Shown one piece after another: positions 10,984-34,371 of a stretch of DNA of 64,000 nucleotides (its first letter is position 1; the number at the start of each line of letters is the position of its first letter). The notes beneath the pieces are model-generated. The model saw nothing but the letters and a program-made list of their open reading frames with translations, searched no databases and was not told where the DNA came from. Source of the DNA: an uncultured Clostridia bacterium (GTDB lineage: Bacteria > Bacillota > Clostridia > Christensenellales > CAAEEZ01); the NCBI GenBank assembly GCA_934365195.1, contig CAKRNA010000008.1, positions 3,995-67,994 of the forward strand. Direction: 5' to 3'. The translations under genes were made by a program, and so were the position numbers.

Positions 10984-10987
10984 AAAG

Positions 10988-11122: not shown

Positions 11123-11296
11123 AAAGCACATTTTTTGCTTATCTTTTTTTTATTTTTTTAATATTGAAGTTTTAAAAATGCTAGGATAATGCAAAACGCA
11201 ACTAATTACCCACCTAATAAAAAATACGATAACCATAATATCGTTACAAAAATCTAAAATATTTAATAAATAAAAAAACCGAAACAAGCCGTTTGC

Positions 11297-11918: not shown

Positions 11919-12791
11919 ATGTACGGGGACAAAATATCACAATTAAGAAAAGAAGCAAATTTAACACAAGGTCAACTTGGTAATTTACTTAATGTAAGTG
12001 CTCAGGCAGTTTCAAAGTGGGAAAATAATTTATCAGAACCAGACCTTGCAACTGTAAAAAGGATTGCTAGTATATTTAATATATCTATTGATGAATTTCT
12101 AGATATCAAAATAGATAGCAACGTAGATGAAGAGACAACCAGTGTACAACAAAATAAAGAAGTTAGTGATGCAATTGCAAATGCTGTTACGGAAATAAAA
12201 GAAGATGTTATTGGGTATTGCACAAATTGTGGAACAAAGGTAACAAAAGACAATGTTGGAGTTACTAGTCCAAAAATTTTATGTAAAAAGTGTGCCGAAG
12301 AAGTAAGGCTAGAAGAAGATAAAAAAGAACGAGCAAAAGAGACGGCAAGACTAAATAAAAAGCAAGATTTAAGGACTAGAAAAAAGAAGAGCATTATTAA
12401 AGGTAGTATTGTAGCTGTATTAGTTTTTGTATTTGGTATGATGGTTACATTTGCAGATACTTCAGATGCCGCAGGTACAGTAGGCTTATTCTTTTTCTTC
12501 TTGTTTGTAACTTATGGAAGCTATGCTTTTACCGCAGAAATTGTTCTTGATAAAGGACCTATTGGCGATATATTATTATGGTTTGTTTCAAGGCCACTTC
12601 GTATGCCTGGTGTTATCTTTACACTTGATTTAAGTGGATTGTTTTTCTTGATATTTGTAAAACTAGGGCTTACAGTACTTAGTTTTATGTTAGGTGCATT
12701 ATTGTTTTTAGTGGGAGTATTTGTAGGCTTAATTGTTGCACCATTTTCGTTCCCATTTACAATACATAAAGTTAATAAAGAATTAAAATAA
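11919..12791 (+). CDS. Membrane-bound regulator: XRE HTH, zinc ribbon (CTNCG...CKKC) and a C-terminal multi-TM domain
   Basis: N-terminal HTH_3 motif LRKEANLTQGQLGNLLNVSAQAVSKWEN. A CxxC...CxxC pair. About 4 hydrophobic helices at the C-terminus. Confidence 0.75.
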   Translation: MYGDKISQLRKEANLTQGQLGNLLNVSAQAVSKWENNLSEPDLATVKRIASIFNISIDEFLDIKIDSNVDEETTSVQQNKEVSDAIANAVTEIKEDVIGYCTNCGTKVTKDNVGVTSPKILCKKCAEEVRLEEDKKERAKETARLNKKQDLRTRKKKSIIKGSIVAVLVFVFGMMVTFADTSDAAGTVGLFFFFLFVTYGSYAFTAEIVLDKGPIGDILLWFVSRPLRMPGVIFTLDLSGLFFLIFVKLGLTVLSFMLGALLFLVGVFVGLIVAPFSFPFTIHKVNKELK

Positions 12792-12817
12792 TATTAAAAA
12801 AACAAAAGGGGGAAAAA

Positions 12818-15295: not shown

Positions 15296-15328
15296 ATTAT
15301 TAGTTAACAAAAACCACTAATTTTAAAG

Positions 15329-15460
15329 TGCACCCCAGAAGTTAGACAAAAATATAAAACTTTTGGAGGTGCATTTTTAATGGCAAAAAAAGAACAAGCG
15401 TTTAGAAAATACTCGCCTGAGTTTAAGTTATCTGTTATACCGGATATGCGCGAAAATTTT
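15329..15460 (+). mobile_element. IS3-family remnant: left terminal repeat (TGCACCCCAGAAGTTAGAC) plus the truncated 5' end of orfA
   Basis: MAKKEQAFRKYSPEFKLSVIPDMRE resembles IS3/IS150 OrfA N-termini and then degenerates. No transposase body or right end is present. Confidence 0.5.
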
Positions 15461-15647
15461 ACAAAAAGGGAAAATTATATAAAAATAACTAAATTGATAA
15501 GTAGAAATGTAAGCACAATACCCCCACACATAACAGTATATTTTCCAATAATATAAATACAATTCGCTAATTATATAAACGCAAATCCCTTGCTAAATCG
15601 CCACCGTTGTGCTATAATTACCATTGCTAAAACTTAATACCGCTTGC

Positions 15648-15688
15648 GCTTCCGTAGTTAAATGGATATAACAGCCCCCTCCTAAGGG
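15648..15688 (+). other. 5' half of a disrupted tRNA-Arg(CCT): acceptor, D-arm, anticodon stem and loop; putative attL
   Basis: GCTTCCG TA GTTAAATGGATATAAC A GCCCC CTCCTAA GGG followed by non-tRNA sequence. The stems are complementary to the 3' half at 28806-28850. Confidence 0.75.
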
Positions 15689-15867
15689 TTTGCTATTCCT
15701 AATATGAACCCTTGAAAACGGGGCAAAACTATGCAAAAACCGCTCAAAATCGTGCATTTTGGCGATATGGCAGACGGCTAAAATAAAATTTGGTGACCTA
15801 AATGGTGACCACGGCGAAAAAAGTTCGCCAAAGTGGGTATTGCTATATCCTGTAAAATTTAATATAT

Positions 15868-15942
15868 CTTTCCGTAGTTAAATGGATATAACGGCGCCCT
15901 CCTAAGGCGCAATTTCGGGTTCGACTCCCGGCGGGAAGACCA
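15868..15942 (+). tRNA. tRNA-Arg (anticodon CCT), 75 nt with encoded CCA
   Basis: Manual cloverleaf. Acceptor CTTTCCG/CGGGAAG. D stem GTTA/TAAC. Anticodon arm GCGCC-CTCCTAA-GGCGC. T arm TCGGG-TTCGACT-CCCGG. Discriminator A, then CCA. Confidence 0.9.
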
Positions 15943-15946
15943 AAGA

Positions 15947-15971
15947 AACGACCGATTTCTCGGTCGTTTTT
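15947..15971 (+). terminator. Intrinsic terminator after tRNA-Arg
   Basis: AACGACCGA-TTTC-TCGGTCGTT followed by a T run. Confidence 0.7.
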
Positions 15972-16241
15972 GCATTGTAGTGCGTTATTTATTCTTTCTT
16001 AAATTCTGTCAGCATACGTAGATGCGCTTGCCTATAGTATTTTCTAAAGGTAGCCCACGGTAGGCTTGTATCCTGGGAGAAGGCGATTATCACGCCTATC
16101 AGTTCGCCTTAGTCCTTCGCCTCTGTAATTACCTTTTCATAATCCATTTTATTTACACTGTTTGCTCCCTATCTTTGATAAATATACAATACAGCAAATG
16201 AAAATTTAAGTCCAATAAAACCCGCCAAAAACCCAAAGAAA

Positions 16242-16265
16242 AACGACCGAATCATCGGTCGTTTT
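16242..16265. terminator. Second copy of the same hairpin; a bidirectional terminator at the 3' end of the ATPase gene
   Basis: AACGACCGA-ATCA-TCGGTCGTT with T runs on both strands. The context CCAAAGAAA(AA)CGACCGA duplicates 15941-15971. Confidence 0.65.
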
Positions 16266-16268
16266 TAC

Positions 16269-18593
16269 TTATACCTTTTGGAGTATTGTGTATAAATCAA
16301 TTATACTGTTTCTTTTTTGTTCTTCTTCGTCATTGTCAAATTGGTGCGCTGGGGAGTTGTATTCTTCTCTCTTAAGGTCAAGTTCCTTAAATAAATCTAA
16401 TCCAAGGCAACCTGTATCTTTTAGCCAATTTAACAACTCGTGAAGTTGGGTGTAATTAAAATTCGCAGTTCTTATTTCATATGCAAAATGGTATTCTAAA
16501 TGTTTTTGCATTAAAGTACGCGCATCCACTTCATTATAAGAGTGAGAAGTGCCATCCATGAAAGTAACCATAGAATGAATTGCTGATTGGTAATCGTCCA
16601 TCAACAAAGGTTCATTTTTGGGATCGATTTTTTTCAAATCATTTGTTGTCGGACCGTGGGTTATTTTTATTAAGGTAGGATTATCGTGATATGTTAATTG
16701 AACTGCTTTTTTATAGAAGTTTTGATAGTGAGTTGTAATAATTATTTGAGCAACGGAATCCTTTAATTTTTTTACTTCATTGATGAAAATATTCATTCTA
16801 TCAATATCAAAACTTGTGATAGGGTCATCTAAAAAAATAATTGTTTCACCCGATGCTGTTCTTTTTATTTTGGTGAAAAATATTGCTAATGCCAACGCTC
16901 GCCTATCCGATTCGCTTAATACAAATTGTATTTTATCTTTCGGTACTAACTCGCCTCTAAAATAAACATCAAGTGAGTAGGTTTTGTTTGTTCCTTTGGT
17001 GGTAATAACCTTTTCGATTTTATAATTCCTACTACCAAATTTTTCGAAATAAGCATTAATATCATCATAGAATTCGGTTAAGTAGGATTCTTGTTCTTTG
17101 TCAAAATCTTGCTTTTTTTGCTTAGACTGATTTGCTATATCAGTAATTTGTTTTTTTAGTAAAACAAATTGTTGAATTTTATCGTTAAGCAAATTACGCT
17201 GGACAATGATAAATAATCGGTTGTATTCATTCTCTAGTTCAATTATGTGTTTATTTATTGAATCTGCTGTTAGGTTGGCAATGTATGCGCCCGCTAATGT
17301 ATTAAATTCCTGTAATAGGGTGTTATATTGTTTTATATTTTCGTTATATGCTTTAATGGTGTTGTAAAAACTTTGCAAATCAAATGCTTCAATCGAAGTA
17401 TAAAAGTTGTCAAATTTATTTTTAATTTTTACTTCCATTGTTTCGATTAGTGTTTTAAGGCTCTTTTCGCAATTTTCATAATTAGATATAAGAATTTCTC
17501 TTGCGTCAAGCAATGAATGGTATAAAGTTGAAACCTTTTCATCGAAAACCTTTGAATTAATTGTCGCAATTAAATCTTCATTTTGTATTAATTTTGTTGG
17601 ATTAATATTTAATTTTGTTGGAAACTTAATTTTATTGAGTGATAATACCTTTTGGGTATATTCTTGTATTTCCTTGCTAAAAAATTCAATAAAAACATCG
17701 ATGCTTTCATTTCCAGTTAAGGAGGTACCACAAAAAGGACAATGTTCGTCAACAATCCATTGTGTTCCTTGTAAAATCCAATTGTCTATTGCAACTGAAT
17801 CTGATGAATTTATATAAGTGTTTTTATGATTATTATATAATTCAATTAAATCTTGTTTTTGAAAAGAATATGCACTGGCTAGTATTTTATTTATATCATT
17901 AATTACGGAAAATATATTTATATCAATGGGAAGCAAAGCAGTTGGGAATGCTAAATTTTTAATAGCAGAAATATTTTTCAAGTTTTTTGTTTCTTCTTGT
18001 ATTGTCGTTTTTATTCCCAATAACGCAACATCTTCATCGTGAATATCTGCTTGATATGGCGCTTTTATAAAGTCTTTCAATGGAAGTTTTTTTTCGATTG
18101 CACGTTCAATATCTTCGGTAAGGGAATCATATTTACGAGTAAGCTCATTTTTTTGTTCGTTTAATGCCAATAATTCTCTTGATAAATTTACGCTTTTCTC
18201 ACCAATAATAAAGCGAGTAAAGTTTTCTTTATTTTTATGCTCTATTGCATTATTTGTAAATACATTATCAAAAACAAAAGCGGTATCAAAAACCTCTATA
18301 TTTGACATGTCGCCCAACCCTGGGTCTATACACCACAAACCTCTTTGAAATTTTGCATTTTTACCATTTGAAAAATTGAATGATACAGTCGGTTGTTCAG
18401 TCTGTCCAACAGTTTTTCTTTGAGTAATATAAATGGGGTCGTTATTCTTAAGCGATTTAATGACGTCACATATAGTTGTTTTTCCTTGTGAATTTGGTCC
18501 ATACATCAGTACTAGTTTTGATAATTCAATTGACGCCGGGCGAGAACTTAAAAATGTCCCAATGTTTTTTATCTCTTGTATCCTACTAATCAT
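16269..18593 (-). CDS. RloC/PrrC-like AAA_13-type ABC ATPase with long coiled-coil insert, CxxC zinc hook and C-terminal R...NxxxH region; putative defence ATPase or anticodon-nuclease-like protein
   Basis: The N-terminus IKNIGTF...LVLMYGPNSQGKTT carries Walker A. CPFCG sits mid-way in a ~500-aa helical insert. The signature-like LSESDRRAL and Walker B IIFLDDPITSFD follow. The C-terminus reads ARTLMQKHLEYHF...EEYNSPAHQF. The 774-aa size is similar to RloC. Family assignment is from memory. Confidence 0.55.
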   Translation of the reverse strand: MISRIQEIKNIGTFLSSRPASIELSKLVLMYGPNSQGKTTICDVIKSLKNNDPIYITQRKTVGQTEQPTVSFNFSNGKNAKFQRGLWCIDPGLGDMSNIEVFDTAFVFDNVFTNNAIEHKNKENFTRFIIGEKSVNLSRELLALNEQKNELTRKYDSLTEDIERAIEKKLPLKDFIKAPYQADIHDEDVALLGIKTTIQEETKNLKNISAIKNLAFPTALLPIDINIFSVINDINKILASAYSFQKQDLIELYNNHKNTYINSSDSVAIDNWILQGTQWIVDEHCPFCGTSLTGNESIDVFIEFFSKEIQEYTQKVLSLNKIKFPTKLNINPTKLIQNEDLIATINSKVFDEKVSTLYHSLLDAREILISNYENCEKSLKTLIETMEVKIKNKFDNFYTSIEAFDLQSFYNTIKAYNENIKQYNTLLQEFNTLAGAYIANLTADSINKHIIELENEYNRLFIIVQRNLLNDKIQQFVLLKKQITDIANQSKQKKQDFDKEQESYLTEFYDDINAYFEKFGSRNYKIEKVITTKGTNKTYSLDVYFRGELVPKDKIQFVLSESDRRALALAIFFTKIKRTASGETIIFLDDPITSFDIDRMNIFINEVKKLKDSVAQIIITTHYQNFYKKAVQLTYHDNPTLIKITHGPTTNDLKKIDPKNEPLLMDDYQSAIHSMVTFMDGTSHSYNEVDARTLMQKHLEYHFAYEIRTANFNYTQLHELLNWLKDTGCLGLDLFKELDLKREEYNSPAHQFDNDEEEQKRNSIIDLYTILQKV

Positions 18594-18609
18594 GCTCTTC
18601 CTCGTTTTT

Positions 18610-19347
18610 TTATAAATGTATGTTGTACATCAGCCTGTCTTCACGGCCATTATCGTATAAAAAGGCTTTTTGGTCGTAATTAAAGACTGGCTTTGCTTTA
18701 TGTATTATACGGTGATGGTCTGGACAGACAATCATCACGTTTTTCGCGTCGTTGTTTGCTGTGAGGGAGATGGGTTGAATGTGATGTGCTTCACTTACGT
18801 CAACGCCATACATTTCAATTGCTCGTGCTCCACATATTTGGCAACGGTATTCATACAACCCTTTAAGCGATTGTTGAATTTTAGGGTCGAATACGCGGTT
18901 CTTGGATTCTTTTATCGTCTTAATAATATGAGCCGTGCTGTCCTTACCGTTTATTATTGCCTCTAATTCGTCTTCGGAGCACCCGTGAATAATTTTCCGC
19001 GCTTGCTGTCTTTCGTGCTCCTCAATGGTTATTTCTTCGTTATCGGCTAAAATAGACTGAACAATTTTAGTTAACTCTTCAAAAGTGTAATGTTTTAAGC
19101 CGTTGTGAAAGGTTTCAACTACGGCGTTAGGCATCCTTTTATTGAAACCAACGCGGTGGCTACCTGTTAATGGGTCAAACTCATCACGACGGAGTTTTAG
19201 GTAATGATTATCTTTGCCAAATTTTAAGGATAAATCGCTAAAAGCCTCGGTTAACGTAGAATAACCAAGCGCTTTCATTGCATCCCTATCAAATTTTGAA
19301 AAATAATACGCCATTATCGTGGCTTTTCTATTATTGTCGGTAAGCAC
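18610..19347 (-). CDS. HNH endonuclease (McrA-type beta-beta-alpha-Me zinc finger) with a ~110-aa N-terminal domain of unknown function
   Basis: CQICG...EAHHIQP...N...VCPDHHRIIH. GTG start with AAGGAG 7 nt upstream. It ends 16 nt before the ATPase gene, so the two form an operon. Confidence 0.8.
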   Translation of the reverse strand: MLTDNNRKATIMAYYFSKFDRDAMKALGYSTLTEAFSDLSLKFGKDNHYLKLRRDEFDPLTGSHRVGFNKRMPNAVVETFHNGLKHYTFEELTKIVQSILADNEEITIEEHERQQARKIIHGCSEDELEAIINGKDSTAHIIKTIKESKNRVFDPKIQQSLKGLYEYRCQICGARAIEMYGVDVSEAHHIQPISLTANNDAKNVMIVCPDHHRIIHKAKPVFNYDQKAFLYDNGREDRLMYNIHL

Positions 19348-19465
19348 AACCTTTCTCCTTTGTTATTCGTGTTTTACTTGGATTTCGTTATAGTCATACC
19401 TGTTTTGTTTGTGGTCAATAGTTTGGTTGTTTTCCAATATTTAAGCCAGTATTTCTTTTATAAGT

Positions 19466-20638
19466 TCAGTTTTTTTGACCAAACAACTGTTTCGCCATAT
19501 ATTCAATTACTTTTACGTTAACAGCATTCCCGAATTGTTTATAGGCTTGGTGGTCGTTAGGGTTACATATAAACGTGTCAGGGAAACTTTGTAGACGTGC
19601 AGCCTCTCTAGGGGTCAGTCTACGTTTAACCTTGCCTATGACAGGAATTTGAACCATTGCCACAAGAGCGGGGAATACGCTAGGTCTTTTTACGCGTACG
19701 CCACTTGGTCTAAACTGAATCAATGCATCCCAAACGGAAGAGCAATCTTTACCACATTGCCATTCGAATTTTTGTTCGGTCATGGTAAAGTCTTTTAAGT
19801 AATCCCATTTCTTAAGCCATTTGTCAATAAACTCTTTGTTGTTTAAGTAAAGCGCACGGCTTTTCCTAATAAATTCCTCCTTCCATTTTGGGTAACCTAA
19901 ACCTTCATACTGATACGTTTTTCCAAATTCATCAGACCATATAGGAAATCCAATTACTTTTTCTTTTATGCCTTTTATGAACTCATCCCAGCATGTTAAC
20001 ACTTTTTCTTCGTGTTCGGTAATGTAGTATTTAGCGTCAACGGAACCTTCTTCAATAATGCCAGATTCCAAGAAGTTAATTTTATCTTTGTCGGTGTGTG
20101 GTAATTCAACCTTTATTTCTGTTACGCCAAGTGATTCGTGAATACCTAGTATTACAACTCTTTCGCGTATTTGTGGAATGCCTAACTGGTGTGGACTAAT
20201 AATTATAGGTTCTTCTGTAATGACATATCCTAGTTCTTTTAAACTATTTTTAATTACACGCCAAGTATTGCCGTTATCGTGCGCTGCCAGGTTTCTAACA
20301 TTTTCAAGAATAAAGTAAGGCGTTTTGTGATACTTTAGTATTCTTATAATTTCAAAGAAAAGCGTACCACGCGTTTCATCCTCAAATCCCTTTTGATGGC
20401 CTGCTTTCGAAAATGCTTGACAAGGGAAGCCTGCACAAAGAACATCGTGTTTTGGAATCATCTCAGCAGCGACGTCACGGATGTTTATTCCAGAATCTAT
20501 GTTATAATTTAACTTATATGTCTCAATCGCATATTTATCTATTTCTGATGCAAATACGCATTCTCCACCTAAATTGCTTAACGCTTGGTGAAATCCTCCT
20601 ATTCCTGAAAATAGATCTATAAATTTAAATTTGGTCAT
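19466..20638 (-). CDS. DNA (cytosine-5) methyltransferase, R-M subunit M2
   Basis: Motifs FSGIGG (I), GFPCQAFS (IV), ENV (VI), QSFPD, GNAV (X). The start was moved to MTKFKF (GGAGG RBS). Confidence 0.9.
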   Translation of the reverse strand: MTKFKFIDLFSGIGGFHQALSNLGGECVFASEIDKYAIETYKLNYNIDSGINIRDVAAEMIPKHDVLCAGFPCQAFSKAGHQKGFEDETRGTLFFEIIRILKYHKTPYFILENVRNLAAHDNGNTWRVIKNSLKELGYVITEEPIIISPHQLGIPQIRERVVILGIHESLGVTEIKVELPHTDKDKINFLESGIIEEGSVDAKYYITEHEEKVLTCWDEFIKGIKEKVIGFPIWSDEFGKTYQYEGLGYPKWKEEFIRKSRALYLNNKEFIDKWLKKWDYLKDFTMTEQKFEWQCGKDCSSVWDALIQFRPSGVRVKRPSVFPALVAMVQIPVIGKVKRRLTPREAARLQSFPDTFICNPNDHQAYKQFGNAVNVKVIEYMAKQLFGQKN

Positions 20639-20686
20639 TATTACCTCCGCTACCAAAATAGCGTAAATATTTTTACAAGTCCAGTA

Positions 20687-21355
20687 CTATTTATTTGTTT
20701 TAAATTTATAAATTTCAAGGTTAGGATTATTTACATCGATCATAACCTTGGCATTTCTAGCCGCGCCATTAGAATTTCTAAACGCCGATTGAAATTTGCC
20801 GCAATATTGAATTGTTTCGGCATTTACCCAAGCAAAAATAAGTTCGTCAAAAGAAAAAGAAGTTTTTCTGCGTCTTGATGGTGCTTTACGTTCAACGCGT
20901 TCTTTTTCGTATTTACTGATTCCACCTTTTAATTCGTCATGCCACTTCTTAAAAGAACCGTCAGTGTCATAAATACTAACTCCGCTAGCAATGATAAAGC
21001 AAACTTGTCCATATTCGTCAATTGCGCGCATAGTTTCGTCATAGCCATTTGTTGGAATCTTACCGCCATCATTTTTGACAGGGTCAATACTGTGTGCTTT
21101 AAAATCCCAATTTATATCTCTAAAACCATCAAATTCTACTTTGCCATATTTTTTGCCTGGGCATTCCATAAAATTGTCTTTACCTAAAGTTTTTTCGCAC
21201 ATAAACTGAAAATAAAAACCAGGCCACTCCATTTGTTTCCAATGGTGGCAACCATTCTCTTTCATGTATTCAATTGATGCCTTTCCCTCCCAAACGGGAG
21301 GGATTCCTTTTTGCAATTTTTCAAAAATTGTTTTCATCATTAATTCTTTATTCAT
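20687..21355 (-). CDS. Putative type II restriction endonuclease (PD-(D/E)xK candidate)
   Basis: It lies between two m5C MTase genes. Its ATG overlaps the M1 stop (ATGA at 21352-21355). A possible catalytic core is FDGFRDINWDFK. No family was recognised. Confidence 0.55.
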   Translation of the reverse strand: MNKELMMKTIFEKLQKGIPPVWEGKASIEYMKENGCHHWKQMEWPGFYFQFMCEKTLGKDNFMECPGKKYGKVEFDGFRDINWDFKAHSIDPVKNDGGKIPTNGYDETMRAIDEYGQVCFIIASGVSIYDTDGSFKKWHDELKGGISKYEKERVERKAPSRRRKTSFSFDELIFAWVNAETIQYCGKFQSAFRNSNGAARNAKVMIDVNNPNLEIYKFKTNK

Positions 21356-22317
21356 ATGTTTTCTCCTTTATTAAGAGTTTCTTTAATTTTAATTGCAATC
21401 CTTTTAACAAGCGGTACGCATACCGTATTACCCGCTTCAGAGTATGCTTTATCTAATGTTGTCCCGCTTGCAAAAGAAAAGGTTGTCGGGAACCCCTGAA
21501 GTAATAGGCACTCCTGTGGCGTAAGGTAGCGTATACCGAATTTATCGTAAATAATGGGTTTGTGTAATTTTAACCCACCCATACTAGCGGTTAGCGTTCT
21601 GCAAATTCCGTCTTTACCTGTGCGTACTTGTCCGAAGTGTAATTGGTACATTTGACTTTTATCTTCCATTTTTGATTTTAAAAGAAAATAGTCTTCACTT
21701 TGCTTATCAATATAATAGATTGCATCGTGCTTAATAGAAAAATCAATTATATCAGTTAGTTTAACGTTTAACTCTTGTGGTTCGGGAAATTTGAAAAGTT
21801 CTCCCAAGTTCTCATCCAGAAAAGCCACAATAAAAATACGTTCTCGCTTTTGGGGAATATTCGCATATTCGGTTGGACAAAGAATTTTATATCTGACCGA
21901 ATATCCAAATTGAGCGAGGGAGGCAAATATTTTATTAAAGGTTTTGCCGTCATCATGTTCTTGAAGATTTTTCACGTTCTCAAGAAAAATAACTTTAGGT
22001 TTCTTTTTTTCTACTATACGTTCAATTTCAAAAAACAAAGAGCCTCGCTTATCTTCAAAACCACGTTGTTTGCCTGCAATGGAGAATGCCTGGCAAGGGA
22101 AACCAGCAACCAAAACGTCAAAATCAGGAATATCGTTAGGATTAACTTTTTTAATATCTTTTTCCAATAGGTTATGGTTAGGAAAGTTTTTCTTATATGT
22201 TTTGCAAGCATATTTATCAATTTCATTGGCAAAAACGATGTCAAATCCTGCTTGCAAAAAGCCTAAATCAATTCCTCCAATGCCCGAGAAAAGGCTTGCA
22301 ACTTTGATATTTGACAT
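21352..22317 (-). CDS. DNA (cytosine-5) methyltransferase, R-M subunit M1
   Basis: Motifs FSGIGG, GFPCQAFS, ENV, QGFP, GNTV. The true start is MSNIKVASLF at 22317. The ORF-track 5' extension overlaps the HTH gene. Confidence 0.9.
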   Translation of the reverse strand: MSNIKVASLFSGIGGIDLGFLQAGFDIVFANEIDKYACKTYKKNFPNHNLLEKDIKKVNPNDIPDFDVLVAGFPCQAFSIAGKQRGFEDKRGSLFFEIERIVEKKKPKVIFLENVKNLQEHDDGKTFNKIFASLAQFGYSVRYKILCPTEYANIPQKRERIFIVAFLDENLGELFKFPEPQELNVKLTDIIDFSIKHDAIYYIDKQSEDYFLLKSKMEDKSQMYQLHFGQVRTGKDGICRTLTASMGGLKLHKPIIYDKFGIRYLTPQECLLLQGFPTTFSFASGTTLDKAYSEAGNTVCVPLVKRIAIKIKETLNKGENI

Positions 22318-22322
22318 ACAGT

Positions 22323-22532
22323 TTAAATTTCTTCCTTTCCTGCATCCATTATATCGCCGATATTGCATTGTAATACCTTGCAAATGCGTAGCATTACGTC
22401 CATTGATACGGTTTCGTTTTTGCTCATTTTTGCCATAGTGGAAGAAGACATATCCGTTAAGTTGCATAGAGCCGTCTTAGTCAACTTTTTATCTATGAGT
22501 AATTTCCAAAGTTTATCGTAACTGACTGTCAT
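22323..22532 (-). CDS. Small HTH protein, controller (C-protein)-like regulator of the R-M operon
   Basis: 69-aa Cro/C1-type HTH (LTKTALCNLTDMSSSTMAKMSKNETVSMDVMLRICKVLQCNIGDIM) immediately upstream of M1. Confidence 0.7.
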   Translation of the reverse strand: MTVSYDKLWKLLIDKKLTKTALCNLTDMSSSTMAKMSKNETVSMDVMLRICKVLQCNIGDIMDAGKEEI

Positions 22533-22559
22533 ATTTACACCTCATACAGTACTGATAGT

Positions 22560-22622
22560 ATTGTAGCAAAAAAGAGGAAAAATTGCAAGTAATTCCTTTG
22601 ACATATCAAAGAAATTCTTTGA
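22560..22622 (-). promoter_or_regulatory. Promoter of the C-M-R-M operon with C-box-like operator
   Basis: On the minus strand: TTGCAA (22588-22583), 17 nt, TACAAT (22565-22560). Upstream is the 17-bp palindrome TCAAAGAA-A-TTCTTTGA (22606-22622) plus the half-site TTCCTTTGA (22593-22601). Confidence 0.6.
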
Positions 22623-22637
22623 AAAATAACAGTAAAA

Positions 22638-22668
22638 AACCGAGGCGTTTTGTTTATCCCTCGGTTTT
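22638..22668 (-). terminator. Intrinsic terminator after int (bidirectional shape)
   Basis: CCGAGG-N13-CCTCGG flanked by A6 and T5 runs. Confidence 0.7.
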
Positions 22669-22672
22669 TCGT

Positions 22673-24067
22673 CTACTCAAATATTTCTTCTATCTTTTGG
22701 GCGGCGGAACGGTCGGCTGTTTTTAGGAAGTGACTGTATATGTCGGTGGTTGTGCTGGTTCGCGCGTGACCCGCTCGACCTGCGACTGTTACGATAGGAA
22801 CTCCTGCGGCGATTTGCATAGTGATGTTGGTATGTCTAAGGCTGTGGACGGTTCGTTCTTCAAGTCCTGCCGTCTGGCATATCCGTTTCATCCACGTGTT
22901 TATCGTGCCAGGGTAAATGTTTCCGCCGTATTCACCGATAAACAGGCGGTTGCTGTTTTCCCACTTATCGCCGCACATCACTCGGTATTCTTCGTACCAA
23001 GCCTTATATTCCGTCAGCACCGCTATCAGTTTGTCAGATATGGCAATTACGCGCTTACTGCTTTCCGTTTTCGGTTCTTTCAACACCAACCCAACCTTGC
23101 GAACGACGGTGAGCGACCTTGCTATGGTTATCGTGCCGTTTTCTAAGTCGATATCCGACCATTCCAGTCCGCACAGTTCGCCACGGCGCATACCCGTTAG
23201 AAGAAGGGTAAGCATGGCCGTTTTATAGCGGATATCGGAATACTCGTCCGCCGCCTTATAGAACTTTTTAGCGTCTTCGTCATCCATATAATCAATTTCC
23301 CGTGGCGGACGCTTGGGGAATGTTATGTAATCGGCGCTAGCGTAGTTATCGACTATCAGCCTTTGCTTTTTTGCCGTAGCAAGCACCGCCCGTATGGTGC
23401 GCTTTATTTTGTTTATCGTTTCGTAGGCGTATTTTTGCGTCATATGCGTAACGTTGAATAAGTTTTCCGTTTTCTCGCCCAGCGTTTCGGCTAGCCGTTT
23501 GGCATACTCGTAACTGATTTGCTTACCTGCCAACGCGTTGGATAGGGAGCAACTGCTGAAATTCTTTTCATATCGTAGTTTCATATAACCGATACCCGTT
23601 TGGTTCATTTTCTCACGCAAGGTTGGTTTTGCCGTAACGACCGTAACGATCTTTTTCATACGGTCGAGTTTATCGTAGTATTGCTGTATGATATTCGGCG
23701 TAAGTTCTTTAAGTTTGTATCCGCCGATATGCTTATTCGTCAATTCTATGGCGCTCTCGCAGTTTACGTAATAACTCGCAGCCACTTCGTCTTTTCGCCT
23801 TTTTAGCCACCAAAGCGCGTAGTCCGAGAAAGTGGTTTCGGGGGATTGAGTCGGCTCTCCCGACGCCGTTTCTGCCGCTTTAACGGCTGTTTCGTATTCG
23901 GCGGCGAACAACACTACTTCCCGTTCCGTTTGTTTTGGGGTAAGCCCGACGGGCGGTTTCCAAGTGGTAGAGTGAACTTTGATTTCACCGCTACCCCTAT
24001 CCTTAATTTTGACCTGTATCCGATAGGTCATACCGCTTTTCCCGGGGCGTTTGCTTATACTTGCCAT
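22673..24067 (-). CDS. int: Tyrosine site-specific integrase with N-terminal arm-binding-type domain
   Basis: The C-terminus HSLRHTNITMQIAAGVPIVTVAGRAGHARTSTTTDIYSH carries R..HxxR..Y. The earlier RRGELCGLEWSDID box is present. RBS AGGAGG. Confidence 0.9.
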   Translation of the reverse strand: MASISKRPGKSGMTYRIQVKIKDRGSGEIKVHSTTWKPPVGLTPKQTEREVVLFAAEYETAVKAAETASGEPTQSPETTFSDYALWWLKRRKDEVAASYYVNCESAIELTNKHIGGYKLKELTPNIIQQYYDKLDRMKKIVTVVTAKPTLREKMNQTGIGYMKLRYEKNFSSCSLSNALAGKQISYEYAKRLAETLGEKTENLFNVTHMTQKYAYETINKIKRTIRAVLATAKKQRLIVDNYASADYITFPKRPPREIDYMDDEDAKKFYKAADEYSDIRYKTAMLTLLLTGMRRGELCGLEWSDIDLENGTITIARSLTVVRKVGLVLKEPKTESSKRVIAISDKLIAVLTEYKAWYEEYRVMCGDKWENSNRLFIGEYGGNIYPGTINTWMKRICQTAGLEERTVHSLRHTNITMQIAAGVPIVTVAGRAGHARTSTTTDIYSHFLKTADRSAAQKIEEIFE

Positions 24068-24155
24068 TAAATTACCTCCTACGGCGTTTTATTAAGGGGA
24101 CGTAGCAATCCCCTTAACAAAAGGAAGCCGTAAAAATTTAGAAAAGTCTAGCGAT

Positions 24156-24350
24156 TTAGCCTTGCGAACCGCTAAAATATTTGAATAAATCGTCTAAATC
24201 CACGAGAAGTTTCTTCCCCGTAAATACGCAACGTATTTTACCGCTTTTGCAAAGGCTGCGAACACAGTTAGGGGTTACCGCCGTCATAGGGTCTATCGCC
24301 TTAATTTCGGCTATAGTTTCGGTTATCGTTCTCATTCTGGGAATCGTCAT
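24156..24350 (-). CDS. xis: Excisionase-like small DNA-binding protein (MerR/HTH_17-like)
   Basis: 64 aa, directly upstream of int. The ending ...VRSLCKSGKIRCVFTGKKLLVDLDDLFKYF is typical of Xis/AlpA-like proteins. Confidence 0.6.
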   Translation of the reverse strand: MTIPRMRTITETIAEIKAIDPMTAVTPNCVRSLCKSGKIRCVFTGKKLLVDLDDLFKYFSGSQG

Positions 24351-24393
24351 CTAATACTCCTTCTTGCTCATATTTTTCTCCTTTTCCTTGAAT

Positions 24394-24626
24394 CTTCGTA
24401 TCTTCGTTGCATTGTTGCGTCGTTCTTCGTATCTTAGTTTCTTTGAATTTTTTGATTTTTTGAATAAATTTTGATTTTCGTGTGTATTAAAATCAAAAAT
24501 CAAAATCGAACGAAGTGGCGTATTTTTAGCATTTTTTTAAAGATTTGTCACTAAAATCGCCTTTTTCGCCACTTCGAACGAGTTTTGAAAATATTTTTTG
24601 ATTTTGCGCTTTGATTTTTGATTATG
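24394..24626. repeat. Repeat-rich AT-rich non-coding region; candidate iterons/origin or regulatory hub of the island
   Basis: TTGATTTT occurs 8 times in both orientations. The direct repeat CTTCGTATCTT occurs twice (24394, 24425). The inverted repeat CGAAGTGGCG / CGCCACTTCG lies at 24511-24520 / 24567-24576. Confidence 0.6.
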
Positions 24627-24702
24627 CGAAAACTCACGTATGATTGCCGCCCCGCTTATGAGTTAAAATCGTAGAGATTTGACATCCCCCCAGGGAACGC
24701 AA

Positions 24703-25020
24703 TTAGACCCTACCACTCTCGTCTTCCATTTTCTTGATTTCATCGCATTCCATCAGGGCGAAGTAGTGTACGTAAGCACCGTCAGGTTCTTGCTCGTACT
24801 CGTGCTTAATATAGCAACGACGGGTCAGAAATTCTTCTAATTCAAACGTCAAATTATAGGCGGTAATAATATCGATTCGTTCGTTTTTGGGCAATCCGTC
24901 GTTGTAGATATCTTGCAATTTCTTGGTGCTGAGTACCCAACCCTCGTCACCGCTTTCTTGAGCATAAATTCCTATAATATTTTTCATTCTTTTTTCTTGC
25001 GCGTTTTTAAGTTCTACCAC
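24703..25020 (-). CDS. Hypothetical protein (105 aa with GTG start, or 94 aa from ATG at 24987)
   Basis: It is adjacent to the stop of the upstream gene. No motif was recognised. Confidence 0.5.
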   Translation of the reverse strand: MVELKNAQEKRMKNIIGIYAQESGDEGWVLSTKKLQDIYNDGLPKNERIDIITAYNLTFELEEFLTRRCYIKHEYEQEPDGAYVHYFALMECDEIKKMEDESGRV

Positions 25021-25021
25021 G

Positions 25022-25840
25022 TTAAATGTCTCCGTTAATAAATTTTAATAGTTTTTTCTCGTTTTGTTTGCGTACGAGGTCACGCATATTTTCGCAGTCT
25101 AACTGCCGTTCGAATAGGCACGAGCCTTTAATTCGGTGAGCCGTCCGTTCTTCGTAATTGCAATTCGCCATTAGGGCGCTGATGCGATTATTACTTGAAT
25201 AGATGGTTGGTTTTTTAGCATTGATACGAGTATTGATAAGATCAAACGCTATCGTTTGCAACCAACCCGTACCCGCTTTAACGTTTTCTGCGCCGATATC
25301 GTCCAAAAAGAGAAAGTCAACCGTTTCGGCTTTGTTAAGTACGGCAGATTGCGCCGAGTTGTTTCCAAAGCCTTCTTTTAGTTTTCTTTCAATCTCCACG
25401 AAACTGGTAAACAGTACGGTGTATAACTTATCCGCCAGGGCGTTACCCATACATGCGGTAAGATGAGTTTTGCCAACGCCGGGAACGCCGTAAAGATAAG
25501 CACCGACGCCCGCCGCGTACATTTTGTCCGCGTGAAAGCAATAGTTCCGACACATTTGATAGACTTCCTTGTTGTTAGGTATAATCGTAACCGTTTCAAA
25601 CGTACAGTTTCTAAAATGCTTTCCGAGCGCGCTGTTACGGCGGTATTCTTCCGCTTTTACTTTCCGTTCGTACATTTTTCGCTCGTTTTCGGCTTTTTTA
25701 TAAGCCTCTTCACGGCATTTGCAGGCGACGGGGAAATAAATGTCTTCAATACGGCATACCCTTGGCGTGTGGCAGTTTTTGCAATAGGCAAGTCCGTCGT
25801 CGCCCAAGTATTCGTCGGTTTGTAGTACAATCGTATTCAT
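25022..25840 (-). CDS. DnaC/IstB-like AAA+ ATPase (helicase-loader type) with N-terminal Cys-rich region
   Basis: Walker A GVPGVGKTHL. Walker B FLFLDDIGAE. N-terminal CKNC...CKC. Confidence 0.8.
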   Translation of the reverse strand: MNTIVLQTDEYLGDDGLAYCKNCHTPRVCRIEDIYFPVACKCREEAYKKAENERKMYERKVKAEEYRRNSALGKHFRNCTFETVTIIPNNKEVYQMCRNYCFHADKMYAAGVGAYLYGVPGVGKTHLTACMGNALADKLYTVLFTSFVEIERKLKEGFGNNSAQSAVLNKAETVDFLFLDDIGAENVKAGTGWLQTIAFDLINTRINAKKPTIYSSNNRISALMANCNYEERTAHRIKGSCLFERQLDCENMRDLVRKQNEKKLLKFINGDI

Positions 25841-25845
25841 CAATC

Positions 25846-26268
25846 TTATTCGCCCCAGTCGATACCGTAATTACTTTCGTAAGAAATATTATTTTTATCT
25901 ATTCTACTTACTGTATTATAGTTAGCGTTTTTAAGCGTATGTTTTTCGCGTTTTTGAGCGTTACCCACGCTTATTTTTGACAGCGTTATTGAAGAATTCG
26001 GTTTAATAATACGCTTACGATAACCATTATCGTCTGTAATGCGACTAACGGTTATGAGTTTGTAACGTTTAAGTACCCCTATCAATCTGCTCACCGATTG
26101 AATTGACAGGTTTAATCGCCTTGCAAAATACTTATTTGATGCAAAACAAAACCCGTCGGTTTGTGATAAGGCGCAAATCTCTCCATGCAGTATTTTTGCG
26201 CGTGGCGGAATAGAAGTGATAGAATTCACTTTTTCGTCCAGTTTTATGTAGTTCCTACTAGTTATCAA
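25846..26268 (-). CDS. Winged-HTH protein, replication-initiator/organiser-like
   Basis: TTG start after AGGAGGA. The segment AKILHGEICALSQTDGFCFASNKYFARRLNLSIQSVSRLIGVLKRYKLI is typical of phage/ICE replication HTH proteins that sit upstream of DnaC-like loaders. Confidence 0.55.
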   Translation of the reverse strand: MITSRNYIKLDEKVNSITSIPPRAKILHGEICALSQTDGFCFASNKYFARRLNLSIQSVSRLIGVLKRYKLITVSRITDDNGYRKRIIKPNSSITLSKISVGNAQKREKHTLKNANYNTVSRIDKNNISYESNYGIDWGE

Positions 26269-26364
26269 CGTGTTTCCTCCTGCTTATATGTTTGTTAGCA
26301 ATATTGCGAACACTCGGGTAAAATTAAAAAGGAATCGGCAATTCCTTTTTAGGAAGGGAGCAGA

Positions 26365-26838
26365 CTAATCTTCTACGTCGGCGTCAGCCACTCCTTTTGA
26401 TATAAGACCGTCAACGGCTGAAATTATCGCAAGCGATTCGTCTTCGTTGTCGACCACTAGCGAATCCAAGTTGTCCACTTGCATTAGTTTGCGTACTACT
26501 AGTCTGGAAAATTGATTTTTGCGTAAGAATTCAGCCATATCGGGAGCAAGTTCCTTTCTTCCTAATCCGATCAATTCCATAACCTCATACTCGGTGTTTT
26601 CATTCACTCTGTAAGCAGAAAGGATTTTCTTGAGAACCTCGCCTACGGGCGGATAGCGTCTGTCGTTTTCAAGGTCGGAAAGATATGCCGGGGATATTCC
26701 TATTTCTCCACAAGCACCACGGAGCGACAAATTGCACCTTTCTCTTAACTTCTTTATCATTTTTCCGAAGGTAACGCCTTCTGCGTTTGCAATTACTGCG
26801 CCGTCTTCTCTTCTTGGCATAGCCTTATATTTTGCCAT
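26365..26838 (-). CDS. XRE-family HTH regulator of the island
   Basis: KKLRERCNLSLRGACGEIGISPAYLSDLENDRRYP. Confidence 0.75.
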   Translation of the reverse strand: MAKYKAMPRREDGAVIANAEGVTFGKMIKKLRERCNLSLRGACGEIGISPAYLSDLENDRRYPPVGEVLKKILSAYRVNENTEYEVMELIGLGRKELAPDMAEFLRKNQFSRLVVRKLMQVDNLDSLVVDNEDESLAIISAVDGLISKGVADADVED

Positions 26839-27136
26839 AGTCTTACTCCTTTAATATATGTTCGCATTTTTGCTTACATTAGTATTATATGCAACTTAAA
26901 GTCATTTGTCAACAAAATTGCGAACATTTTTTAAAATATTTTTTAATTATGTTTATTAGAATTGATAATTTACATATGAACAGGGGAAAACATGCCGTTA
27001 CAGAAAATCGTTTGACTTTTTGAAATTATTTTTTATAAAGCGATGAATTTTTGACCAAAACAAACGAAATAAATTATCGTATAGTTGGCAGTTTTTCAAA
27101 TAATAAATCGAATATTGCTTATATACGAGCAAATTA

Positions 27137-27173
27137 TTGACAAAAAGACTAAAATGTGCTAATATATTAGCAC
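27137..27173 (+). promoter_or_regulatory. hipBA promoter with overlapping perfect 18-bp palindromic operator; near-leaderless transcript
   Basis: TTGACA (27137-42), 17 nt, TAATAT (27160-65). The palindrome GTGCTAAT-AT-ATTAGCAC spans 27156-27173. The ATG is at 27175. Confidence 0.65.
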
Positions 27174-27174
27174 T

Positions 27175-27465
27175 ATGGAAAGAAAATTTGATATAAGCGA
27201 TTTCGTAAACGCACCCACTATTCAATCGACGCTCGTTTCTTTGACCGACAGGGTTAAAGCGCGCAGAAAGGAATTAAAGTTATCTCAAAAAATCCTTGCA
27301 CAAAAGTCGGGGGTTTCTTACGCGTCCGTTCGACGTTTTGAAAGCACGGGCGATATAGCGTTCGTATCCTTATTAAAAATCGCAAGCGCGCTCAATTGTC
27401 TTGAAGATTTCAACGCGCTTTTCGGCAGTAGAAGAATAACCAACTTAAAGGACTTGAAATTATGA
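27175..27465 (+). CDS. hipB: HipB-like XRE antitoxin
   Basis: HTH LSQKILAQKSGVSYASVRRFESTGDI. There is a 4-nt ATGA overlap with hipA. Confidence 0.75.
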   Translation: MERKFDISDFVNAPTIQSTLVSLTDRVKARRKELKLSQKILAQKSGVSYASVRRFESTGDIAFVSLLKIASALNCLEDFNALFGSRRITNLKDLKL

Positions 27466-28565
27466 TTAAAGACGTAAAAAAAGTTACGGTTAAGTATAAC
27501 GGTCGCACAGTCGGATATCTTGCCGAAATTGAACCGTCCGTCATCGCCTTTCAATACGACGATGCCTGGGTGAAAAACGGCTTTTCTATATCTCCTTTAT
27601 CGTTACCTCTCAATAATGCCGTTCTCGTTAGCAAAAAAGACTTATTCGCGGGATTATACGGCGTGTTCTGGGATTCTCTCCCCGACGGCTGGGGCGAATT
27701 GCTGATGAATCGTTTATTGAGCAAGAAAGGAATAAATCCCAACAAAATTTCTATTTTAACCAAGTTGTCGCTCGTGAATAAAAACGGTTTAGGCGGATTG
27801 ACGTACGAACCTACTCAACCTTTTGAATACGAATACGGCAATTTTAATTTTGACGAACTGTCAAAGGAAATCGAAAAGATATTAAACGACGAAAACGAAC
27901 CCGTTGATTTGGATTTGGTTTACGGTTTGGGCGGCTCCAGCGGCGGCGCAAGACCAAAGGCGCACATTAAACTAAACGGCGAAGAATGGATTGTAAAATT
28001 CGCTTGCAGAATCGACCCGAAAAACGTAGGCGAAAAAGAATTTATCGCAAACCAAACTGCCGAAAAATGCGGTATCAACGTAAACGAATATAAACTGTTT
28101 CCGTCCAAGTTATGCGCGGGCTATTTCGGAGTAAAGCGATTTGACCGAAAAGGTGAAAGGCGTGTCCATACGATTTCGCTTGCCGCCCTTTTGGAAACTA
28201 CTCACAAAATACCAAACCTTGACTATATGCATCTATTCCAGGTGATTCAAACCATTAGTGCGAAACCTACCGATGATTTATACGAGGCGTTCCGCCGTAT
28301 GTGTTTTAACGTGTTCTATAACAACAAAGACGACCACGGAAAGAATTTTGCATTCATTTACGACGAAACGCTTAACGGCTACGCGCTTTCTCCCGCATAC
28401 GACCTAACGCGAGTACCCGATAAATATGAGCACGAAATGACGGTAAACGGCAACGGCAATCCGACCAAAGACGATTTGCTTGCGGTAGCAAAGGAATTCA
28501 GGTTATCTGTTACCAAGTGCAAATCCATAATGAATTCGATTGAAAAAATTTGCAGGGACATATGA
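27462..28565 (+). CDS. hipA: HipA-family serine/threonine kinase toxin (short form, 367 aa)
   Basis: A HipA N-terminal coupling region. The motifs GGSSGGARPKA and NKDDHGKNFAF match the HipA catalytic motifs. Confidence 0.85.
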   Translation: MIKDVKKVTVKYNGRTVGYLAEIEPSVIAFQYDDAWVKNGFSISPLSLPLNNAVLVSKKDLFAGLYGVFWDSLPDGWGELLMNRLLSKKGINPNKISILTKLSLVNKNGLGGLTYEPTQPFEYEYGNFNFDELSKEIEKILNDENEPVDLDLVYGLGGSSGGARPKAHIKLNGEEWIVKFACRIDPKNVGEKEFIANQTAEKCGINVNEYKLFPSKLCAGYFGVKRFDRKGERRVHTISLAALLETTHKIPNLDYMHLFQVIQTISAKPTDDLYEAFRRMCFNVFYNNKDDHGKNFAFIYDETLNGYALSPAYDLTRVPDKYEHEMTVNGNGNPTKDDLLAVAKEFRLSVTKCKSIMNSIEKICRDI

Positions 28566-28641
28566 TTTTCAGTATACTGAACATAATAGCACACATTTTG
28601 GTGACCTGGGTTTATAAAATGCCTTATTTTACCTAAGATTT

Positions 28642-28683
28642 GGCAACCAAATTTGGTGACCTTTTTGGTTGCCTTGGGTTTTT
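28642..28683 (+). terminator. Intrinsic terminator after hipA
   Basis: GGCAACCAAA-N12-TTTGGTTGCC followed by TTGGGTTTTT. The loop contains one TTTGGTGACC repeat. Confidence 0.6.
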
Positions 28684-28805
28684 GAACGCTATAAAAGTTG
28701 TTAAAAGACGTAAAAATTATGCAAAATACGGCGGGCAAACGGCGAAAATGACGCAAAATACGTATTTTAGGTATTTTGCAAACCCTACGTCAGGGGCAGA
28801 TATAT

Positions 28806-28850
28806 CCTCCTACGGGGCCGTTGTGGGTTCGATTCCCGCCGGGAGTACCA
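28806..28850 (+). other. 3' half of the disrupted tRNA-Arg(CCT); putative attR
   Basis: C CTCCTAC GGGGC CGTT GTGGG TTCGATT CCCGC CGGGAGT A CCA. It pairs with the 5' half at 15648-15688 (GCCCC/GGGGC and GCTTCCG/CGGGAGT). Confidence 0.75.
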
Positions 28851-28853
28851 AAA

Positions 28854-28888
28854 AACCTAAGCCTGTTTTGGCTTAGGTTTTGTTTTTT
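28854..28888. terminator. Bidirectional intrinsic terminator serving the former tRNA-Arg and the convergent 1022-aa gene
   Basis: AACCTAAGCC-N6-GGCTTAGGTT with A and T runs on both sides. Confidence 0.7.
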
Positions 28889-28914
28889 GGTAAGAATGTT
28901 TTTTAGCGTGTAAG

Positions 28915-31983: not shown

Positions 31984-31984
31984 A

Positions 31985-34370: not shown

Positions 34371-34371
34371 A

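Follow-up and report, generated by a model that had tools for sequence, protein, structure and literature searches.

Location and structure of the split tRNA gene

The DNA analysed in this work is a 64-kb stretch of contig CAKRNA010000008.1 (the window; position 1 is its first nucleotide). It holds a 13.1-kb integrative element (the island) of an uncultured, Spo0A-encoding gut Clostridia bacterium, which is non-phage, bears defence cargo, interrupts a host tRNA-Arg(CCT) gene in the anticodon loop without rebuilding it at either junction, and carries a complete tRNA-Arg(CCT) gene of its own. Sequences were analysed by using ARAGORN, BLAST, Pfam, PHROGs, PADLOC and MAFFT. An empty site was found on a conspecific metagenome contig (L211). 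Attachment sites are referred to as attP (element), attL (left junction) and attR (right junction). The features on which the argument rests are as follows:

15590–15618, + strand: host tRNA promoter TTGCTA-17-TATAAT, extended TG; best promoter-like match in 15400–16300 (10 of 12)
15648–15688, + strand: 5′ half of the host tRNA-Arg(CCT), forming attL; identical to L211 8831–8871
15678–15688, + strand: copy of the common core at attL, CCTCCTAAGGG; 11-bp overlap of the BLAST blocks against the empty site
15689–15867, + strand: left arm of the element (P′ arm of attP), 179 bp; starts TTTGCTATTCC; phased A-tracts and tandem repeats
15790–15798 and 15802–15810: left-arm repeats TTGGTGACC and ATGGTGACC (one mismatch)
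15868–15942, + strand: complete element tRNA-Arg(CCT) with encoded CCA; acceptor stem CTTTCCG/CGGGAAG, anticodon stem GCGCC/GGCGC
28590–28805, + strand: right arm of the element (P arm of attP), ending GCAAACCCTACGTCAGGGGCAGATATAT; TTGGTGACC at 28598–28606 and 28653–28661
28806–28816, + strand: copy of the core at attR, CCTCCTACGGG, carrying A38C at 28813
28806–28850, + strand: 3′ half of the host tRNA-Arg(CCT), attR
28852–28881, + strand: host tRNA terminator, identical in the empty site L211

The 5′ half consists of the first 41 nucleotides (nt) of the gene, GCTTCCG TA GTTAAATGGATATAAC A GCCCC CTCCTAA GGG, that is, the 5′ strand of the acceptor stem (GCTTCCG), the D-arm, the 5′ strand of the anticodon stem (GCCCC), the loop (CTCCTAA) and GGG, and then runs into non-tRNA sequence. 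The 3′ half reads C CTCCTAC GGGGC CGTT GTGGG TTCGATT CCCGC CGGGAGT A CCA (28806–28850). ARAGORN called two tRNAs only in the whole window, the intact tRNA-Arg(CCT) at 15868–15942 and an unrelated tRNA-Ser at 58326–58414; neither half (15648–15688, 28806–28850) was called alone, and no tRNA was called at either junction. Joined in silico, the halves were recognised as a canonical 75-nt tRNA-Arg(cct). Within the 64 kb there are exactly two occurrences of the D-arm string and exactly two of the T-arm/acceptor string (chance expectation zero).

A species-level scan (one genome per species) was made for the 5′ half of the window with an anticodon stem that closes, whatever the remainder of the 3′ half; it yielded at least 120 loci, chiefly in gut Clostridia metagenome-assembled genomes (MAGs). 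The full 75-nt join, with A at position 38, is uninterrupted in at least 20 sampled Clostridia genome loci; the two halves are contiguous in relatives. An initial annotation of the window, made from the letters alone, had proposed that an integrase island splits a host tRNA-Arg(CCT) at the anticodon loop, and both the ARAGORN call on the joined halves and the uninterrupted gene in L211 agree with it.

Empty site, boundaries and common core

Contig L211, which was retrieved by a look-up of contigs encoding the exact left-flank protein, has an intact tRNA-Arg(CCT) gene at 8831–8905 with the same promoter region and the same terminator. Both marks by which the initial annotation expected an empty site to be recognised, the GCTTCCG acceptor and the terminator behind it (28852–28881), are present. 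In this contig only the tRNA-Arg(CCT) gene separates the 825-aa left-flank gene from the 1022-aa and 559-aa right-flank genes. Synteny of the window flanks at DNA and protein level against 120 genome loci with an intact tRNA gave no empty site, and exact look-ups of the right-flank protein and of the integrase returned occupied contigs only.

Two BLAST blocks were obtained, L211 4104–8871 with window 10939–15688 (98.9 %) and L211 8861–14478 with window 28806–34423 (99.95 %). They overlap in L211 by 11 bp, and this overlap is the common core CCTCCTAAGGG in the anticodon loop. Because the blocks overlap in this manner, the island is exactly 15689–28805 (13.1 kb) plus one copy of the 11-bp core. 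The anticodon-loop sequence had been suggested beforehand as the crossover core, and attL had been described as unrestored; the overlap confirms the former, and the continuation of the left junction into non-tRNA sequence the latter. Of the conspecific contigs, about six have the island and about six lack it. Since occupied and empty contigs are about equal in number, the island is a live polymorphism.

Position 28813 (tRNA position 38) is C at attR of the window and A in the empty site, at the left junction and at all related right junctions, from which the C reads as a lineage-specific change in the orphaned 3′ half and not as a host allele. A mismatch during excision or a C38 tRNA product could result from it. 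A copy of CCTCCTACGGC at 24075 was considered as an internal att site and rejected; it is the Shine–Dalgarno sequence of the integrase gene on the other strand.

The replacement tRNA gene

The element tRNA sits 179 bp inside attL. It differs from the host tRNA in all four stems, and the anticodon loops are identical. The same element tRNA, without a change, is found in L131, L132, L139 and L142 beside different host alleles (four host alleles overall), the split genes having stems AACCC, GTCCC or TGCGC, or even another D-arm type. Because one element tRNA adjoins differing host genes, it moves as part of the element, and the halves are of host origin; the earlier view that this complete, compensatorily different tRNA-Arg(CCT) is the island's own is thereby substantiated. 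That the 5′ fragment might be a local duplicate of the island tRNA is ruled out by the compensatorily different stems, and in L128 and L141 the host fragment is of another tRNA type than the element tRNA. A split tRNA assembled in trans (Nanoarchaeum type) was likewise rejected: the empty site marks a recent insertion polymorphism, the host is bacterial, and the inverted repeat across the junctions (see below) does not track the host stems.

The 17 distinct tRNA-Arg(CCT) sequences from elements have 355 of their 357 stem cells (99.4 %) in standard pairs, with compensatory double changes at 17 of the 21 stem positions; pairing was counted from structural positions, since MAFFT misaligned the variable-loop region. 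This covariation supports the view that the element tRNAs are under structural selection and functional.

The host promoter region, which lies 5′ of the intact gene in L211, is kept in the window upstream of the orphaned 5′ half; in the occupied site, the promoter at 15590–15618 points into the island tRNA. No + strand terminator was found between the two. Since the host promoter is the best site in the scanned interval, with no terminator before the tRNA and no comparable promoter in the arm, the element tRNA is probably transcribed from the captured host promoter after integration.

Codon use was counted in 12 long host open reading frames (ORFs; 9259 codons) from 11919–15295 and 28915–64000. 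AGG had been taken for a rare codon in the initial annotation; it is in fact the commonest host Arg codon (109 of 254, 43 %; 11.8 per 1000). As AGG is the main Arg codon, inactivation of the host gene would probably be costly, which makes the replacement more important, not less. CGN codons are nearly absent from the host ORFs. In island genes AGG occurs at 6.1 per 1000, about half the host use, and the quite different Arg codon mix confirms the foreign origin of the island.

Sequence of the attachment site and the integrase

Three exact copies of TTGGTGACC occur in the 64-kb window (15790, 28598 and 28653), all within the two arms. Left arms aligned from 12 elements (51–100 % integrase identity) have an invariant CCTCCTAAG, a conserved TTGCT-rich segment and phased A-tracts. 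Their tandem repeat is TGGTGACC at integrase identities of at least 83 % and TGGCACC in the 60–72 % clade; the repeat motif tracks the integrase clade (GGTGACC versus GGCACC). Such repeats fit putative arm-type sites, which would be bound by the N-terminal domain of the integrase and co-evolve with it. The integrase consists of an N-terminal extension, a SAM-like domain and a catalytic domain, in which the motif-consistent residues R295, K333, H408, R411, H434 and Y444 are invariant.

An imperfect inverted repeat (30 nt, 77 %) lies across both junctions, at 15664–15693 and 28778–28807. In the reconstructed attP it takes the form GCAAACCC-N28-GGGTTTGC around the core, and a pseudo-core, AACCC-TACGTCA-GGGGC, is present about 20 bp left of the real core. 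The end of the right arm is conserved in close relatives independently of the host stems; its role is perhaps in core-type binding by the integrase or in synapsis.

Gene content of the island

The remaining features of the island are:

15946–15971: GC-rich hairpin with a T-run behind it, a likely bidirectional terminator for the element tRNA
16269–18593, − strand: ABC-type ATPase (AAA_13, PF13166), candidate defence protein PDC-S06 (PDLC04895, E = 7e-125)
18610–19347, − strand: HNH endonuclease (PF01844)
19466–20656, − strand: C5 cytosine DNA methyltransferase
20687–21355, − strand: 222-aa protein without a family match, possibly a restriction component (from its position between the two methylases only)
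21352–22317, − strand: second C5 cytosine DNA methyltransferase, called gene 321 aa
22323–22532, − strand: small helix-turn-helix (HTH) protein (HTH_26), probably controller of the restriction-modification cargo
22673–24067, − strand: tyrosine integrase, 464 aa (PF00589, PF14659), the sole recombinase in the island
24156–24350, − strand: 64-aa DNA-binding protein, candidate excisionase or recombination directionality factor; weak match to phrog_6401
24703–26268, − strand: replication module of a 105-aa uncharacterised protein, a DnaC-like helicase loader (25022–25843) and a DnaD-like/HTH_36 initiator (25846–26268)
26365–26838, − strand: cI-like HTH regulator
27175–28565, + strand: HipB-like antitoxin (27175–27465) and HipA kinase toxin (27462–28565)

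An ORF of 64–67 aa occupies the same place, directly upstream of the integrase gene, in L125, L127 and L128. Virion, packaging or lysis genes were not recognised among the scanned island ORFs (Pfam, PHROGs, PADLOC), the integrase has no relative among IMG/VR viral contigs, and the island DNA matched no deposited phage; the best match of the integrase among 50,697 deposited phages is 28 % identical. Near-identical hairpins (AAACGACCGAnnnnTCGGTCGTTTTT, 88 % identical) at 15946–15971 and 16239–16266 bracket a non-coding stretch of about 270 bp between the element tRNA and the PDC-S06 gene, and are probably terminators facing each other. The AAA_13 protein was considered as a tRNA-linked anticodon nuclease of the PrrC/RloC type; this was rejected, since by PADLOC the protein falls into candidate system PDC-S06 and relatives differ in their cargo.

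The 6.7 kb between integrase and tRNA form a variable cargo slot. In the window (16269–22532) it holds the PDC-S06, HNH and restriction-modification genes. In relatives the slot (L125 11519–19245, L126 11880–17150, L127 11443–12075 and L128 11528–14732 were compared) holds an NgoFVII-type restriction-modification system with an nSTAND/UvrD-like protein and DUF2290, a MutH-type restriction-modification system, AbiU2 or McrBC.

The mid-island position of the integrase, 6.7 kb from the tRNA, and the difference in G+C content between the left part (27–37 %) and the right part (39–48 %) of the island might point to a composite origin, with left arm and tRNA as the relic of an older, separate element beside which the integrase island landed. 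This account carries almost no probability: occupied and empty sites differ by a single clean 13.1-kb insertion, both arms have the same arm-type repeat, compact relatives have the tRNA 57–236 nt from the integrase stop, so that the intervening DNA is cargo, and the module of tRNA, arm and core goes together with the integrase in 20 of 21 loci.

Recurrence in the integrase family

The integrase has 701 homologues at E < 1e-20, and its 90 %-identity cluster comprises 703 member sequences. The contexts examined came from exact look-ups (five) and from a scan of metagenomes (80). In the clade with at least 51 % integrase identity, tRNA-Arg(CCT) lies downstream of the integrase, on the opposite strand, in every locus with enough sequence, and a host 5′ half ending in the anticodon loop, then the arm, then the full tRNA were found in 20 of the 21 loci with room. 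The loop at the 5′ half is CTCCTAA (mutated to CACCTAA in L194). The gap between core and tRNA is about 150–195 nt in clear cases; the clade of at least 72 % identity has a gap of exactly 182 nt, and the composite locus L149 one of only 44 nt. A 3′ half at the far end was present in L125, L132, L135, L137, L140 and L142, and it complements its 5′ half perfectly in L132 and L142 (GTCCC/GGGAC, GCTTCCT/AGGGAGT). In L125 (19536–19665) the host 5′ fragment pairs poorly with the 3′ half (AGCCC against GGGGC; GTTCCCA against AGGGAGT) and GTTCCCATAG is duplicated 40 nt upstream, a pattern that suggests decay, inter-element recombination or chimeric assembly.

A tRNA-Arg(CCT) gene of the GTCGGAT acceptor type is itself split in L141 (8300–8420) and L139 by an element that is 92–93 % identical. 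Because this second type is split, any tRNA-Arg(CCT), possibly including element-borne ones, can be a target. In L136 and L138 (around 5150–5400), what follows the right junction is a decayed host 3′ half (CCTCCTAAGGtgcggatttagcc), and a second full tRNA-Arg(CCT) of the GTCGGAT type, with its own promoter, lies about 250 bp beyond the right junction.

These two loci bear on the proposal, made in the initial annotation, that the host depends on keeping the island. Under such an addiction, the island would inactivate the host gene so that the host could not afford to lose it. The host gene is indeed inactive while the island is resident, in a genome that uses AGG more than any other Arg codon; in L136 and L138 rebuilding of the gene is no longer possible, and the 3′ half of the window has A38C. 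Nonetheless, the proposal is unsupported here and very improbable, since excision across the 11-bp core should regenerate the gene, so that ordinary loss would be harmless, and about half of the conspecific contigs are empty, so that the island is not fixed. Moreover, the island already has a conventional toxin–antitoxin pair (HipBA), and L136 and L138 have another full tRNA-Arg(CCT) 250 bp away. Loss would be costly only in lineages with a decayed host half, such as these two; decay of that half, or the A38C of the window, could in time make the replacement permanent.

Other target tRNAs and other integrases

The same layout, with a full cognate tRNA 127–198 nt inside the core, was found on four further tRNAs in distant clades:

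Arg(CCG): L161–L163, 45 % integrase identity
Arg(TCG): L172, 41 % integrase identity
Arg(ACG): L190 and L193, about 33 % integrase identity
Lys(CTT): L208, 29 % integrase identity

The carried tRNA is cognate to the split tRNA in every clade examined (five anticodons). Both complementary halves of Arg(ACG) are present on one contig in L190, and an Arg(CCG) 3′ half in L157. In L160, from the Arg(CCG) clade, the right end of the element, CTCCGAC and the left arm follow one another near the contig end (around 16770–16800) with no tRNA part, which implies an attP-type site, presumably from a circular form or from copies in tandem. No upstream fragment was seen in the Gly(CCC) and Pro(GGG) clades, which have a host-like promoter and look conventional; no far-end repeat was found within range.

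A 474-aa integrase that is 27 % identical has the same design on the host tRNA type of the window in L113 (5440–5701) and L008. Its arm begins GGTATTGTTCTATCC and has tandem TGGTATAAA repeats; the full tRNA lies about 160 nt from the core, and the replacement has the sequence of the host type. A truncated copy just 5′ of a full copy was found in 7 of the 109 sampled species genomes (about 6 %) with the tRNA allele of the window and enough upstream sequence. Three of these seven are broken in the T-loop (L012, 98–300; L105; L116), and L034 is broken just after the anticodon stem; in these four the full copy is within 32–116 nt of the truncated one. This suggests that other recombinase families with other crossover positions also replace the gene rather than rebuild it.

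The range of targets also bears on the possibility that the element tRNA is kept for another purpose, such as evading tRNA-targeting defences or boosting translation, and that the gene disruption is a tolerated side effect. Counter-defence has been raised in published discussion as a driver of tRNA acquisition by phages, all four stems of the element tRNA differ from those of the host tRNA, and the island carries defence genes, including the AAA_13 ATPase. In addition, AGG is readable in principle by tRNA-Arg(UCU), which can decode it by wobble. This explanation is nevertheless unlikely. The carried tRNA always matches the disrupted one, across five anticodons, which argues for complementation rather than general benefit; the anticodon loop is that of the host, so that a loop-specific nuclease would not be evaded; and AGG is half as frequent in island genes as in host genes, so that the tRNA does not serve island codon supply. 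Element and host-type tRNA do not differ in sequence in L113 and L008.

Proposed mechanism

We propose that a non-phage island splits the host tRNA-Arg(CCT) and carries a cognate replacement, by the mechanism published as tRNA-dependent lysogeny, and place the probability of this reading at roughly 0.8. The tyrosine integrase would recombine the anticodon loop in the host tRNA-Arg(CCT) gene with attP, a site in which the 11-bp core would be flanked by the right and the left arm, each bearing arm-type repeats. Since attP appears to have only the loop CCTCCTAAG(GG) in common with its target and to carry no tRNA 3′ part, integration leaves two dead halves (15648–15688 and 28806–28850). Compensation would be provided by the complete cognate tRNA gene, fixed about 180 nt inside the left arm, which after integration would come to lie directly 3′ of the intact host promoter, with no terminator between, and be expressed from the captured promoter. 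Matching in the loop only would free the element from host-specific stems, sister integrase clades have been retargeted by a joint change of core and carried tRNA, and excision across the core should rebuild the host gene. The sequence comparisons show the insertion with its exact boundaries and core, the lack of a rebuilt gene, the element origin and conserved structure of the tRNA, and the repetition of the design in the family; catalysis by this integrase, a function of the arm sites, expression from the captured promoter and a need for the tRNA are inferences.

Several points weigh against this reading. One of the 21 loci, a 70 %-identity relative (L126, around 17440–17470), has non-tRNA sequence left of the CTCCTAA core and may represent a secondary non-tRNA site or loss of the host half; the sequence in question is the region where a 474-aa gene on the opposite strand has its ribosome-binding site. 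No attP junction was found for the clade of the window, and no terminally redundant (circular) contig among all fetched loci. The core difference A38C between attL and attR could lower the efficiency of excision. For expression from the free element, no sigma-70-like promoter comparable to that of the host was found inside the arm in the scan of 15400–16300. Finally, the host would need the replacement tRNA only if it were not otherwise served, and a second tRNA-Arg(CCT) or a wobble-reading tRNA-Arg(UCU) outside the window could serve.

We also put forward, tentatively and as doubtful, that the element is a retargetable modular cassette of a 7–9-nt anticodon-loop core, a fixed arm and a cognate tRNA. 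The integrase would read the generic shape of the anticodon stem-loop, the loop-sized overlap would set specificity, and the promoter-less tRNA would be switched on by capture. If this is true, joint change of core and carried tRNA suffices to move the element to a new tRNA, and the cassette amounts to a naturally programmable integration system that is independent of host range. Element tRNAs would then be targets in turn (L141, L139), leading to nested arrays and to gradual replacement of host tRNA genes by element copies.

The neighbouring tRNA-Asn island and wider implications

Comparison with the empty site revealed that window 10939–10985 is the displaced 3′ half of a tRNA-Asn(GTT), from the anticodon loop onwards. 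Left of it lies an island (window 1–10938) that contains ORFs without Pfam matches and extends past the window edge. Its far end is seen in L215 (5704–6974), where an intact tRNA-Asn (5704–5779) is adjacent to a 362-aa integrase; the element supplied the 3′ half from which tRNA-Asn was rebuilt, together with a repeat of about 70 bp of the sequence downstream. The 64-kb window holds both a conventional and a non-restoring strategy, 5 kb apart, and is a natural side-by-side control.

The survey suggests that tRNA-dependent integration is common in human and animal gut Clostridia, and the strategy is not restricted to phages. Island finders that need a rebuilt tRNA and a long direct repeat will miss or mis-delimit such elements, and tRNA gene counts in MAGs can include element-borne replacements. 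An integrase with a universally conserved 9–11-bp anticodon-loop target and its own complementing tRNA could be a broad-host-range tool for hard-to-engineer gut anaerobes.

Comparison with known systems

tRNA-dependent lysogeny was defined in actinobacteriophages by Guerrero-Bustamante and Hatfull (mBio 2024, PMC10865867). In that system a tyrosine integrase acts on an attP/attB core of 8–17 bp in a tRNA gene without reconstruction, and the phage-encoded cognate tRNA was experimentally required for viable integration (PMC10865867). The phages described are Fionnbharth/K4, Cluster L, CQ2, DL and Gaia, the targets are Lys(TTT), Ile2(CAT) and Leu(CAA), and prevalence beyond actinobacteriophages was left open (PMC10865867). 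As cited there, the Lj965 prophage of Lactobacillus johnsonii (Ventura et al. 2003) is a possible outside case. A later paper credits earlier work of the same group with the mechanism in Mesorhizobium-phage-like prophages. In the literature searched, nothing was found on tRNA-dependent integration by non-phage islands.

The island resembles this system in its tyrosine integrase (PF00589), the presumed catalyst, and in its insertion in tRNA-Arg(CCT), seen by comparison of occupied and empty sites. The core is short in both (11 bp here, 8–17 bp there), the tRNA is rebuilt at neither junction, and the element carries a tRNA cognate to the split one. Putative arm-type sites flank the attP core; related integrases hit different tRNAs, with conventional and non-restoring members apparently mixed; and secondary non-tRNA sites occur, of which L126 may be one. 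Unlike those phages, the 13-kb island has no virion genes and is not a temperate phage, so that "lysogeny" is not strictly apt. The host is a gut Clostridia bacterium, and the targets are Arg(CCT) and, in sister clades, Arg(CCG), Arg(TCG), Arg(ACG) and Lys(CTT). The island tRNA is fixed about 180 nt from the core, at the attP arm, whereas that of Fionnbharth lies elsewhere in the genome and has its own demonstrated promoter; the island integrase, in contrast to the actinobacteriophage system, is parted from attP by the cargo slot.

Like conventional tRNA islands (Islander/Williams model; P4, HP1, P22), the island encodes a tyrosine integrase, targets a tRNA gene with crossover in the anticodon loop, and has a displaced 3′ fragment at its far end. 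Those islands, however, bring the 3′ part of the tRNA with them, which restores the gene at attL and leaves a long direct repeat around the island; the repeat in the window is 11 bp only. Lj965, as far as the cited account goes, is a Firmicutes element reported with a cognate tRNA and without rebuilding of its target, but it is a prophage. Phage satellites, such as phage-inducible chromosomal islands (PICI), which are islands of about 10–15 kb, are similar in size to the island (about 13 kb) and have an integrase, repressor-like regulators, a replication module and a variable defence slot. In contrast to them, no packaging or capsid-redirection genes were recognised in the island, in which several small ORFs are unannotated, and no helper phage is known; no description of replacement-tRNA carriage by phage satellites or PICI-like islands was found in the literature searched. 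The mechanism itself is thus not new; what is new is the carrier, a non-phage island, together with the phylum, the breadth of targets and a replacement tRNA that is fixed by attP behind a probably captured promoter.

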